Positions 2,493 through 5,263 of a stretch of DNA of 5,318 nt are shown piece after piece. Source of the stretch: Escherichia coli (lineage in GTDB: Bacteria; Pseudomonadota; Gammaproteobacteria; Enterobacterales; Enterobacteriaceae). Every line of letters begins with the position of its first letter. Position 1 is the first letter of the stretch. A program made the position numbers and the translations under genes. The stretch lies in the NCBI RefSeq assembly GCF_044324875.1, contig NZ_CP172190.1; one strand, given 5' to 3'. The notes beneath the pieces were generated by a model. That model was not told where the DNA came from. It was given only the letters and a program-made list of their open reading frames with translations, and did no database searches.

Positions 2493-2774
2493 GAGAGCGG
2501 TATGGCAAACCATGTCGAACATTACTTGTGTTACTTGACGTGAGAGATGCGTTAATGCCGCCAGCAGCAGTCCCCCATCGAAGTGACTCATGTGTGACTA
2601 AAGAGCAAGCCTGAGCAACGTAGGAATCTCCAACCTTCAGGACGGGATGGATATCAAGCACCAGGGCACACTTGAAAACAAAACCTCGCCTCTGGCAAAG
2701 CGCGTCCTTTCACGATGACGTAGAGGTATTTGAATATCTGTAGGAGTTCATCACGCTATTTTAACGCTTAAAAA

Positions 2775-2840
2775 GCGCGTTTCTGATTGTGTAACTAAAC
2801 ACAGGTAGTAATTAGTAGGTGTGGGGGGGCAGAAACGCGC
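2775..2840. repeat. Inverted-repeat pair A: GCGCGTTTCTG (2775-2785) and CAGAAACGCGC (2830-2840), 44-bp spacer
   Basis: Perfect 11-bp inverted repeat read directly. It shares the 10-bp core CGCGTTTCTG with pair B at 3310-3373. The spacer contains a G7 run. Candidate operator pair or hairpin. Confidence 0.5.
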
Positions 2841-3180
2841 AATTAATATTTATCGTGAATTTGATTTTATGTCTAGTATCGAGAAACAGAATATAAAAAG
2901 ATTATCTTTGGAAATATAGAAAAAAAATAAAATAATAAACTAAAAACAATCAAAAAATAATAAATATTACACTACAATATGGCAATAATATATTCATTCA
3001 TATAGTGATATACGCTATGGTTTTCAAAATTTTCCTTGAGCTGAAGAACGGAGTTTTATGGCAAACGAGGTAATCTTGCACAGGAAAAATAGGTTGTATC
3101 TATGTCATGGTTTTGTTATTTTTTTTTGCTCAGTTATTGATGGTCAATATGTAAAATAAATCAGGTACTTCCTTACACTT

Positions 3181-3207
3181 ACCCTCATTCATTGAGGGTT
3201 TTTTTTA
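3181..3207 (+). terminator. Rho-independent terminator (plus strand)
   Basis: ACCCTCA-TTCAT-TGAGGGT: 7-bp GC-containing stem with a 5-nt loop, followed immediately by a run of 8 T. No T tract on the opposite strand, so it is unidirectional. No CDS lies upstream, suggesting it ends a small RNA or a decayed gene transcript. Confidence 0.7.
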
Positions 3208-3218
3208 TCCATATCTAA

Positions 3219-3531
3219 GTTGACATCCTCCATGCCCTGAAGGACGGGGTTTTACAGCACACCGGATAACTATCTCGACATGGATATTGATACACGTTAA
3301 AAATACGTGACGCGTTTCTGGCAGATATCTGAGGTCTATTTCGCCGTGTTAGCCACACTGTCAGAAACGCGTTCAATTTCTCCCGTTGAGCTGATATGCT
3401 CATCACCGCAATCACGGTAGTGTCCGAAGACGAACCGTTAATGCATCTTCCCCCCGATACTGGGCTTTCGGGGGGAATATTTACTCGGTGCGCCGTAAAA
3501 CCCCGTCCTTCAGGGCATGGAGGATGTCAAC
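3219..3531. repeat. 313-bp element bounded by perfect 37-bp terminal inverted repeats (MITE-like element or invertible segment); interior 239 bp
   Basis: 3219-3255 GTTGACATCCTCCATGCCCTGAAGGACGGGGTTTTAC is the exact reverse complement of 3495-3531. The interior contains its own inverted-repeat pair (3310-3373) and a 9-bp G/C stem hairpin (3449-3476). No convincing CDS inside, and no target-site duplication is evident at the boundaries. Confidence 0.6.
3310..3373. repeat. Inverted-repeat pair B: ACGCGTTTCTG (3310-3320) and CAGAAACGCGT (3363-3373), 42-bp spacer
   Basis: Perfect 11-bp inverted repeat (15 of 16 if extended), sharing the CGCGTTTCTG core with pair A. It lies inside the 37-bp-IR element. 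Confidence 0.5.
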
Positions 3532-3610
3532 ACGAATCCCCTATCTTCTTTTCAGTAAGAAACGGTCATTGAAAACTTATATAACACTACTTTTGGTGTG
3601 TATTTTGCGA

Positions 3611-3643
3611 TAAAAATATCCCCTATCCTAATGATAGGGGATA
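3611..3643 (-). terminator. Rho-independent terminator (minus strand)
   Basis: Plus-strand TATCCCCTATC-CTAAT-GATAGGGGATA forms an 11-bp stem (3617-3627 / 3633-3643). On the minus strand the stem is followed by A then UUUUU (plus-strand A-run 3612-3616). It is convergent with the plus-strand terminator at 3181-3207, so the two bracket the IR-bounded element. Confidence 0.55.
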
Positions 3644-3745
3644 CAAACGATGAATTAACAGTTCTTAATTCTCACGTGAAAAGATAGATTTTAACGAAGA
3701 CACAATCAGCAGTCTTATATCGAATGGCTATCGATCCTGAATCCT

Positions 3746-3838
3746 GATGAGTGGGGATGTTTCTGTACTACTAATGAAAAGCTATCCGGCTAGAGACTTT
3801 ACGATACAGAAACACCCCTCTTTCTTTTATCTCATCAG
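3746..3838. repeat. Long imperfect inverted repeat / hairpin (CTGATGAG...TGTTTCTGTA // TACAGAAACA...CTCATCAG)
   Basis: Outer 8-bp arms CTGATGAG / CTCATCAG and inner 10-bp arms TGTTTCTGTA / TACAGAAACA pair, with an asymmetric internal loop. Orientation and function are unknown. Confidence 0.4.
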
Positions 3839-4376
3839 ATGCCATAGCGCAAAACAATTTCGTTTCACAGATGTGACTTACAATCAAACTGTGCAACATA
3901 AATCACAAAACAAGAAGGTTTTGTTATTATTTTGTTGATGAGTTGTTTTTCGTTGGTTGTTTTTTTGAGGCGTACATACGCGCACAAATGTAAAACTAAA
4001 TTCGTGTTTTCGATAATTTTAAGGCCACAATCATTATGGCATTTTTTATCCTGATCGCCGTCAAAATCTGTCCTTCATGGCAGGATTTACGGCGATCCGG
4101 ATAACACCAAAGATACCTACATGCTCATTCCCCTGTGGTTTCCAGGATATCTTTCCTGTTTTCTGTGCTGTTCATCGCGCCGCCATACCCCGTAACGACT
4201 GCGCTCAGTACCCCTGAAATTTCGCTCGCCGGAAACACGCGGGTGTTGTTTTAACGTGTCCCGGTAGCGGTGTCCAGGCAGGTATGCTTCCGCCAGCGGA
4301 GTTGTTGATCTTGTGTTCTGTTTTTGGCTAGTATTTGTCCGAAAACCTGTCGCTCCGGCGACCAACTAATCTCCCG

Positions 4377-4471
4377 GTGGTCTGAGAGGGAGGCTTACGC
4401 GACCACACTGTCATCTCAGGATGACCAGCCAATGTTCCGGCAGTCTGAGAGGAGCGCCTTCGGGTGACTGC
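4377..4471. other. Two tandem structurally homologous hairpins (candidate structured RNA or protein-binding motif pair)
   Basis: Hairpin 1: stem GTGGTC (4377-4382) / GACCAC (4401-4406). Hairpin 2: stem GCAGTC (4440-4445) / GACTGC (4466-4471). The stem sequences differ but each keeps perfect pairing (compensatory changes). Both loops begin TGAGAGG and contain an inner mini-hairpin (GC-TTAC-GC; GCC-TTCG-GGT, a UUCG tetraloop). Both are preceded by CCGG. A further tetraloop hairpin GTCATC-TCAG-GATGAC lies between them at 4410-4425. Confidence 0.35.
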
Positions 4472-4934
4472 AATATCCCATGAGCCTGGAAGAGGATGCC
4501 TATATGGCGGCAACATCCGTTTAGCCTCTGGAAACGGATGTCACCAGTAGCTGGTGACTGAGGTACGTTATTTTTACCTTCGGATTACCCGTACGGTTTT
4601 GTATGTCATGAAACTTACGAGTTTTCCTCTCGCAGAGTGGCGAAATGCCTTATATATCTGCGTCTTAAAGATTTTCTGTCAGGCTGCATGAGCTTCTTGT
4701 GACTGTGCGCACGGCATAAGGCCATTTGAAATTTGGCTGCTTGCGTGTGTACGTGGAGTCTGAAGCTGTGCGGCGTCACTTGCGTGCGACCGGAGGGAAC
4801 ACCAAGTGACGCCACAACAATCTGCCCTGAAAGCAGCATCACGTAAGGCCTGCCAGAAAATCGTCGCTCGTGACCAGCGTTCTGATGACCGTTTTGTCTT
4901 TCTGACAGCGTCTTTCAGTAACGTGTCCATGCCT

Positions 4935-5037: not shown

Positions 5038-5127
5038 ATGAAAAATCGTTCTGAAGTCGGAAGGCGTCATCGTAAGATGACGGGGAGTAAAAAATCGCCC
5101 TGGTGCACAGGTAGCGAACTCCTGTAA
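5038..5127 (+). CDS. Possible small basic ORF (29 aa, MKNRSEVGRRHRKMTGSKKSPWCTGSELL); leader-peptide-like, speculative
   Basis: ATG at 5038 is preceded by AAGGA (5027-5031) with 6-nt spacing. The ORF is very short with no recognisable family, and lies about 55 bp downstream of the terminator at 4935-4981. Confidence 0.2.
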   Translation: MKNRSEVGRRHRKMTGSKKSPWCTGSELL

Positions 5128-5263
5128 AAACTCAACATGTGCAAGCTCTGCTACATCGACATCAAACGAGCCAGGAAGGCGAGCAACCGCGTTACAGAGC
5201 CGTCCGTGATGACGAAAAACTAACAATATCAACGATCTGGTCTGTTTATCGGAAGGGCATCTC

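Follow-up and report, generated by a model that had tools for sequence, protein, structure and literature searches.

Stem-loops homologous to the cer hairpin on a small Escherichia coli plasmid: probable orphan Rcd-like RNA genes or relics outside Xer sites

The repeated motif and the hairpin inside cer

Rcd is the textbook plasmid RNA that pauses growth through tryptophanase during dimer resolution; with it, ColE1 plasmids delay the division of the host cell, and it is regarded as a part of cer. It is about 70 nt in length (elsewhere given as 90 nt) and is hosted in cer, and all of its homologues are single stem-loops with a conserved 15-nt sequence (PMC5935869; PMC2254391). The −35 and −10 boxes of the promoter Pcer are just 15 bp apart (PMC5935869), Rcd runs in the direction of RNAII read-through, which enters cer from the ArgR side (PMC2831885), and the RNA binds tryptophanase and raises indole (PMC4393325). 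In this study, we analysed a complete small E. coli plasmid of 5318 bp (the window), in which the 10-nt motif CGCGTTTCTG forms two inverted pairs, A and B. The arms of these pairs are the stems of hairpins homologous to the stem-loop of cer. We read these hairpins as orphan Rcd-like RNA genes, or as relics of such genes, and as neither operators nor recombination sites.

Exact CGCGTTTCTG occurs four times in the window, at 2776-2785 and 3311-3320 on the plus strand and at 2830-2839 and 3362-3371 on the minus strand, and there is a one-mismatch copy at 1062-1071. At one mismatch or fewer, five copies were observed against 0.26 expected, and five were reached in none of 200 dinucleotide shuffles. 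A preliminary description of this DNA had reported four copies arranged as two inverted pairs, and the exact count is indeed four, far above chance. Pair A lies where it had been placed (Table 1), with perfect 11-nt arms (GCGCGTTTCTG and CAGAAACGCGC) and a spacer of 44 nt. The 11-nt arms of pair B (ACGCGTTTCTG, 3310-3320; CAGAAACGCGT) are likewise perfect, but the right arm is at 3362-3372, not at 3363-3373, and the spacer is 41 nt, not 42; the stem lengthens to 15 nt per arm, including one G·T position. The tally of four holds for exact copies but had missed a third hairpin and a truncated copy. The plasmid carries in total three complete Rcd-like stem-loops (copies A, B and D) and the truncated copy C.

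Pair A aligns with the reverse complement of pair B, so the two pairs are paralogues in opposite orientation. Between A read on the minus strand and B read on the plus strand, 20 of 22 arm positions are identical, compared with 18 of 44 (41%) in the loop, 25 of 40 in the flank on the promoter side and 30 of 75 in the other flank, which means that the arms have been kept much better than their surroundings. The link proposed earlier between the inverted-repeat element that contains pair B and the region upstream thus has a basis in this paralogy. Conservation of both arms, which the preliminary description had proposed to check, is also seen in a 5.6-kb relative (L002), where 39 of 40 arm positions are retained. 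The G-run in the loop of copy A is one base longer in that relative.

Table 1. Positions of the stem-loop copies, their associated elements and other features in the window
Feature	Position	Strand	Details
Copy A, Rcd-like stem-loop	2775-2840	−	arms 2775-2785 and 2830-2840; loop 44 nt
Copy A promoter-like motif	2847-2875	−	TAGACA (2870-2875), 17 nt, TAAATA (2847-2852), 6 nt, stem
Copy A U-rich tail	2765-2774	−	CUUUUUAAG, immediately past the stem; from sequence and fold
Copy B, Rcd-like stem-loop	3310-3372	+	arms 3310-3324 and 3358-3372; 15 pairs including one G·U
Copy B promoter-like motif	3275-3304	+	TCGACA, 18 nt, AAAAAT; 9 of 12 matches in the sigma-70 scan
Copy B ARG-box-like stretch	3282-3295		TGGATATTGATACA, inside the promoter spacer
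Copy B U-rich tail	3373-3385	+	UCAAUUUCUCCCG; from sequence and fold
Copy D, Rcd-like stem-loop	3742-3830	−	arms 3754-3768 and 3804-3818 (GGGGTGTTTCTGTAT / GTACAGAAACATCCCC)
Copy D upstream boxes	3824-3829; 3847-3852	−	TAAAAG; TTGCGC
Copy C, truncated	4228-4279	−	promoter blocks TGGACA-N12-CACGTTAAAA and 5′ arm GCGTGTTTCCGGC
55-nt inverted repeat arms	3219-3273; 3477-3531		third, partial copy at 2633-2657 (0 of 500 shuffles)
Rep_3 initiator, iteron type	1690-2391
Iterons	1506-1612

The same arms, with the same span of 61-66 nt, are found in true cer-type sites that have an ARG box and a XerC-spacer-XerD core (L007, L021 and L085; L009, L017 and L024 are identical to L007). In L007 and L021 the left arm comes 16-17 nt after the ARG box, and GGTGCG...AA-spacer-TTATGGTAAAT comes 16 nt after the right arm. 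At the corresponding place, the cer site of ColE1 carries an equally long inverted repeat whose arms differ in sequence (GCGCGATCGCGCAG and CTGCCGTGATCGCGC); in this site the string TTGCAT-15 bp-TAAAAT-7 nt-GCGCGATCGCGCAG matches all published descriptors of Rcd. The 78-nt RNA that begins at this start folds into one long stem-loop (−36.6 kcal/mol, z −4.5), the loop of which holds the 15-mer GGGTGGTTTGTTGCC. The sole other candidate in ColE1 with 15-bp spacing, judged by eye, has its −10 box inside the XerC arm, and its RNA is unstructured (z +0.56). The sequence of Rcd was not found printed in the accessible literature, and a literature string search with the motif and Rcd returned primers and coincidences only. 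Rfam gave no match over 2700-3900 at E values up to 1; since it has no Rcd family and gives only a chance miRNA match for ColE1 cer, the empty result for the window is explained. The suggestion of paired RNA hairpins, one of several made in the preliminary description, agrees with these results, as the arms are stems homologous to the cer stem-loop that matches the published description of Rcd.

Homology to cer was also seen in profile searches. A profile built from six true cer sites only matched the plus strand at copy B (3279-3376) with 17.1 bits and an E value of 1e-5; in 30 shuffled windows the highest score was 4.0 bits. The match spans the ARG-box/promoter part through the hairpin, and in it the promoter-like motif of copy B aligns with the TTGCAT-15-TAAAAT of ColE1. 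The ARG-like box of copy B scores 11/14, the same as ColE1's own box, which alone is not significant; no box of at least 12/14 is present in the window. A covariance model of 15 base pairs was made from 12 sequences, four cer-embedded and eight orphan and none from the window. It finds B, A and D, each on the strand that has the promoter motif upstream: copy B at 3297-3385 on the plus strand (46 bits, E 3.6e-15; 20.5 bits on the minus strand), copy A at 2762-2853 on the minus strand (33.2 bits, E 1.7e-10; 21.9 bits on the plus strand) and copy D on the minus strand (21.9 bits, E 2.2e-6; a partial match of 3.8 bits, E 9, on the plus strand). The model found nothing in about 66 kb of unrelated DNA (a 50-kb IncI plasmid and two chromosomal loci) or in two metagenome chance hits, and it found three to seven copies in the plasmid contigs L118 and L101. 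Copy C was matched by nhmmer at 4219-4272 (E 5.5e-4) and also appears in the table of bipartite motifs.

The predicted RNAs are single stem-loops: a 79-nt RNA for copy A (−21.9 kcal/mol, z −5.5), one stem-loop for copy B (−28.1 kcal/mol, z −4.6) and a 15-pair stem for copy D (−24.4 kcal/mol, z −3.2), which is the same as inverted repeat I22. Copy D keeps the GTTTCTG/CAGAAAC core only, the base of its stem being altered on both sides, and is also found in relatives with a MobQ relaxase (L002). The tails that follow the stems, CUUUUUAAG in copy A and UCAAUUUCU in copy B, are plausibly terminator tails. The hairpin of cer is bordered on both sides by mirrored TTAAAA and TTTTAG boxes. An assignment of the TTTTAACG flank as the downstream side was dropped, as both the cer-only profile and the covariance model show it to be the promoter side.

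Stem covariation, promoter-like blocks and the weighing of alternatives

In an alignment restricted to the arms of 17 distinct hairpins, two-sided change was found in 11 of 17 stem pairs, a number reached in none of 500 shuffles, and controls in which the arms were slid gave one to five two-sided pairs. For example, CTGG/CCAG is replaced by CCGG/CCGG in both copies of the Yersinia pestis plasmid pPCP1, and GCGCG becomes GCGTG, with change in both arms, in a copy of L034; the CCGG arm of pPCP1 type, with CCGG for CTGG, is also that of copy C. Beyond the shared G·T position the stems are extended by differing but paired sequences (CAG/CTG, CGT/ACG and CGGG/CCCG). The arms vary on both sides with pairing kept, which suggests that base pairing is conserved rather than a fixed sequence read by a protein.

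This result bears directly on whether the arms are a protein site on duplex DNA, with symmetric contacts about five helical turns apart for PepA, ArgR, FIS or another regulator. The hairpin stretch of cer does belong to the accessory region that wraps PepA, and the arm-to-arm distance is constant at 52-56 bp. However, two-sided changes that preserve pairing are not predicted for a fixed protein site, PepA is reported to lack a recognisable DNA motif (bioRxiv 10.1101/2024.04.05.588136), the left arm is not kept in all cer sites (L032 cer and L094), and the carriers of the motif share no regulator gene. A duplex site is therefore improbable in our judgement, and PepA contact sites in particular were rejected, their geometry being attractive but the arms covarying and no PepA motif being known. 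The preliminary description had also proposed two operators bound by a dimeric regulator with looping of the DNA; this finds no support, as the plasmid has no gene in common with the carriers L034, L096 and L032 (the last of ColE1 type) and the arms covary. With no protein common to the carriers, a plasmid-encoded regulator is excluded; a host architectural protein is conceivable but would not predict the covariation. The regulator or recombinase gene that had been proposed as a check is absent from the plasmid, whose annotated genes are rep, a member of the LysE family and a short fragment of a pseudogene.

Single-strand priming signals (ssi, sso) typically contain hairpins whose stems are conserved, and the copies could act in single-stranded DNA, for example by priming complementary-strand synthesis after conjugative transfer or in replication. 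In several small plasmids, arrays of the copies adjoin an R64-type oriT on the last-transferred side. Nevertheless, the orientation relative to the R64-type oriT is variable, being reversed in L096 (1.6 kb); in the window, A and B lie on different strands and neither has an oriT next to it; G·T and A·C mismatches show no strand bias (12 versus 8); and the homologous element of cer is better explained as RNA. We regard this as very unlikely.

The least credible of the explanations is that the pairs serve to invert, by site-specific recombination, the AT-rich segment of 470 bp that separates A from B. Homologous inverted modules do flank a promoter-rich segment, but six related plasmids are colinear over 2600-3600, each in one BLAST piece, and thus give no sign of inversion, and the plasmid encodes no recombinase and has no Xer core. 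A scan of both strands of the whole plasmid for XerC-6/8-XerD gave a best score of 17/22 (GAAACGCGCAA-TTAATAT-TTATCGTGAAT), which overlaps an arm of copy A, whereas true sites score 22/22. The earlier mention of recombination sites was right about ancestry, the module having originated in the accessory part of Xer/cer sites, but wrong about present sites, as no core follows any copy in the window.

Ten modules in the motif table, from unrelated plasmids, share the pattern CT(C/A/G)GAC(A/G)-N12-(C/T)ACG(C/T/A)TAAA(A/T)-N7/8-stem, in which the spacing is constant and the N12 varies freely. The pattern can be read as a sigma-70 promoter with a −35 box T-n-GACA, a 17-18-bp spacer, a −10 box TAAAA(C/A/T) and a start at the first base of the stem. 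Apart from its spacer of normal length, this arrangement is that of Pcer. The motif of copy A has the block spacing of nine other modules and aligns with the promoter region of copy B, although it falls below the threshold of the sigma-70 scan and is weak or uncertain. Copies A and D both have conserved promoter blocks with weak −10 boxes, and the spacers are 17-18 bp compared with the published 15 bp. Read in this orientation, the loops of several orphan copies on other plasmids contain GGG(G)ATGGTTTG, a sequence similar to GGGTGGTTTGTTGCC of the Rcd loop.

Taking the pairing, the blocks and the homology to cer together, the copies are probably orphan Rcd-like RNA genes that give short RNAs from their own promoters, and we infer that the orphan copies are transcribed and act as RNAs. 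In this model, each unit would consist of a Pcer-like promoter (T-n-GACA, 17-18 bp, a TAAA-rich −10 box), 6-8 nt and a stem-loop of 61-66 nt, copy A would be read leftward and copy B rightward, and each would yield an RNA of about 75 nt. A protein partner such as tryptophanase is possible by analogy with Rcd, and the different loops could mean another partner.

Several observations weigh against these RNA genes. Only the promoter of copy B passes the sigma-70 scan, which finds eight sites in the AT-rich region against 5.6 by chance, and most −10 boxes of the orphan copies are TAAAAC, which lacks the usual final T. The conserved 15-mer of Rcd, GGGTGGTTTGTTGCC, is absent from the loops of A and B; B matches at 8 of 15 positions and A is unrelated. 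The hairpins aligned for covariation were selected for recognisable arms, and correction of quasi-palindromes by template switching, or gene conversion, could mimic compensatory change. In the relative L002 (2400-2420), the 5′ arm of copy B has AGGCG for ACGCG, and the change is uncompensated. That the cer hairpin is Rcd is strongly inferred from the published descriptors, not from a printed sequence. In addition, palindromic arms alone score 20-33 bits on either strand, and consequently the orientation of copy A hangs on a difference of 11 bits; B and D can be placed on their strands firmly, A less so.

The most serious competitor, which we consider appreciably less probable than RNA genes, is that Xer/cer multimer-resolution sites decayed into the present copies, which would now have no function, after loss of the XerC/XerD core in mosaic rearrangements. 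The arms would then stay alike merely through template-switch correction of quasi-palindromes or gene conversion. In keeping with this, the window has no XerC/XerD core, copy C is cut at a mosaic breakpoint, copy B retains an ARG-box-like stretch and the loops have diverged freely. However, decay does not readily account for arms that are 20/22 identical when neighbouring DNA is at 40-63%, nor for promoter-like blocks and spacing conserved over the ten modules from unrelated plasmids. Moreover, one copy is retained by a plasmid of 1.6 kb, which has little room for junk, and arrays of two to six copies in the same orientation are retained on many plasmids.

The element around pair B, described earlier as bounded by 37-bp inverted repeats, has terminal inverted repeats of 55 nt that are 91% complementary and bracket about 200 bp. 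It was rejected as a miniature inverted-repeat transposable element, as there is no target-site duplication at 3216-3218 and 3532-3534 and the inner part occurs only in six near-identical plasmids. The repeats, and the partial third copy at 2633-2657, correspond to the last 16 codons and the stop of a 62-amino-acid open reading frame (ORF) of prophages and plasmids (WP_000971668.1; ...DILHALKDGVLQRTG*). About 1200 of the 5426 complete E. coli genomes have this gene end once each, in some cases close to hok genes. A small peptide was also rejected, since the ORFs that run across A and B show no conservation from one copy to the other, and attC, an RSF1010-type oriT, a terminator-only function and the par of pSC101 were dropped on inspection of the sequence.

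Plasmid setting and relatives on other plasmids

Across the tested region, the plasmid has 99.9% identity to pLH50-c-F (NZ_CP100506.1, 5319 bp, from poultry faeces). The segment 1167-4186 is 98.8% identical to 5.6-kb relatives that bear a MobQ relaxase; outside it the plasmid is a different mosaic piece, the homology with the MobQ plasmids stopping at 4218, which places a mosaic breakpoint at 4218/4219. Copy C ends about 10 bp from this breakpoint, which suggests that Rcd-like modules mark or promote mosaic junctions. Between 4117 and 4218 the plasmid retains two short pieces of mobQ, the relaxase gene found in the 5.6-kb relatives (L002 3225-3294 and 4043-4080), and it thus appears to have been derived by deletion and replacement, with loss of the relaxase.

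Other features of the plasmid were also seen. Rfam identifies a STAXI motif (89 bits) at 4409-4568 and an EFASI motif (72 bits) at 5046-5168, both on the plus strand within the unique mosaic segment; these motifs are usually met in the leading regions of conjugative plasmids. The stretch 1167-1225, which adjoins the iteron origin and has 86% identity to L021 6758-6814, resembles the region immediately past the ColE1/pBR322 origin in which the primosome assembly sites (PAS) lie. The segment that separates copies A and B, rich in AT and in promoters, contains an ORF of 33 amino acids (3058-3159, plus strand) whose C-terminal half is hydrophobic (MANEVILHRKNRLYLCHGFVIFFCSVIDGQYVK), and after it, at 3181-3199, a clean intrinsic terminator; this could be a small toxin or small-RNA locus.

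A scan for the paired motif, proposed in the preliminary description as a genome-wide check, was made with one genome per species and returned 26 loci against about 8 expected by chance (298 Gb × 31 spacings / 4^20). Seven of the 26 are from Enterobacterales or small plasmid-like contigs, and the non-enterobacterial matches look like chance. A scan of viral contigs gave the L007-type site about 40 times together with variants, and more variants came from a scan of metagenomes. In L007 (3839-5345) and about 40 IMG/VR contigs, a transposase gene of the ISNCY family has, 55 nt downstream, a complete cer-like site with a hairpin of the window's arm type; this site is near-unchanged in many isolate-derived contigs, as if it travelled with the insertion sequence.

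Orphan copies in tandem, with no Xer core, adjoin an R64-type oriT in the 2.7-2.9-kb plasmids L018 and L034 and in the ColE1-type colicin plasmids L032 and L033. The presence of an R64-type oriT in small plasmids is documented (PMC4743918). In these arrays, the promoter block proximal to oriT occupies the place of the start region of the IncI nikA/mobA operon. Two orphan copies are present in pPCP1 and one in the 1.6-kb Col(MG828) plasmid. The sRNA HmsA/sR084 was considered as the transcript of the pPCP1 copies and rejected, as it is unrelated and its locus is across IS100 from them. Within 960-1514 of L096 (NZ_CP019004.1, 1597 bp), the ORF annotated as 'rep protein' overlaps an R64-type oriT, the Rcd-like hairpin and a stretch resembling a PAS; this ORF is probably spurious, and the real initiator looks like the helix-turn-helix protein of 146 amino acids encoded at 91-531.

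Significance and comparison with known systems

We tentatively propose that free-standing, multi-copy rcd-like genes are widespread on small enterobacterial plasmids and have escaped dimer sensing through normal promoter spacing, a possibility we consider less likely than not; the carriers would include iteron plasmids, the 1.6-kb Col(MG828) plasmid, ColE1-type colicin plasmids and pPCP1 of Y. pestis. If this is true, plasmids could tune host growth or indole signalling continuously, or act through different partners set by the loops. If the copies are expressed, the mechanism of Rcd would be wider than assumed and separable from Xer recombination, and it would be present on medically relevant plasmids, among them pPCP1 and those that IncI1 and F helpers mobilise. 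If they are relics only, they still mark cer-derived DNA as a component that recurs in small-plasmid mosaics, both as building block and as breakpoint. Our analysis also supplies a covariance model for a family missing from Rfam and explains conserved 'non-coding' blocks next to oriT copies in small plasmids.

The known kind to which these elements belong is Rcd, and free-standing, multi-copy, Xer-independent copies on non-ColE1 replicons appear to be undescribed in the searchable literature. As in Rcd and Pcer, a single stem-loop of 61-66 nt lies 6-8 nt past a TAAAA-type −10 box, and the flanks are homologous. The copies in the window share their stem sequence with the cer-embedded copies of L007 and L021; in ColE1 the architecture is shared but the stem sequence is not. 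The window copies lie outside any Xer site, with an ARG-like box at copy B only, and they are three to four in number, on both strands, on a Rep_3 iteron replicon, whereas Rcd is on a ColE1 replicon. Their promoter spacers are 17-18 bp, whereas the 15 bp of Pcer keeps it silent in monomers; they lack the XerCD/ArgR context that gives Pcer its dimer specificity, and their loops lack the conserved 15-nt sequence. The orphan copies may be constitutive, differently partnered or relics.

Compared with a cer-type Xer site, the module is homologous to about 100 bp of accessory sequence, from the ARG box to the XerC arm, but the 28-30-bp core is absent from the window, and resolution at the copies is thus unexpected. 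The predicted transcripts also resemble RNAI, CopA and Sok in being short, promoter-proximal and highly structured plasmid RNAs. However, those RNAs are antisense to an overlapping target, of which none is evident in the window, whereas Rcd acts on a protein (PMC4393325).

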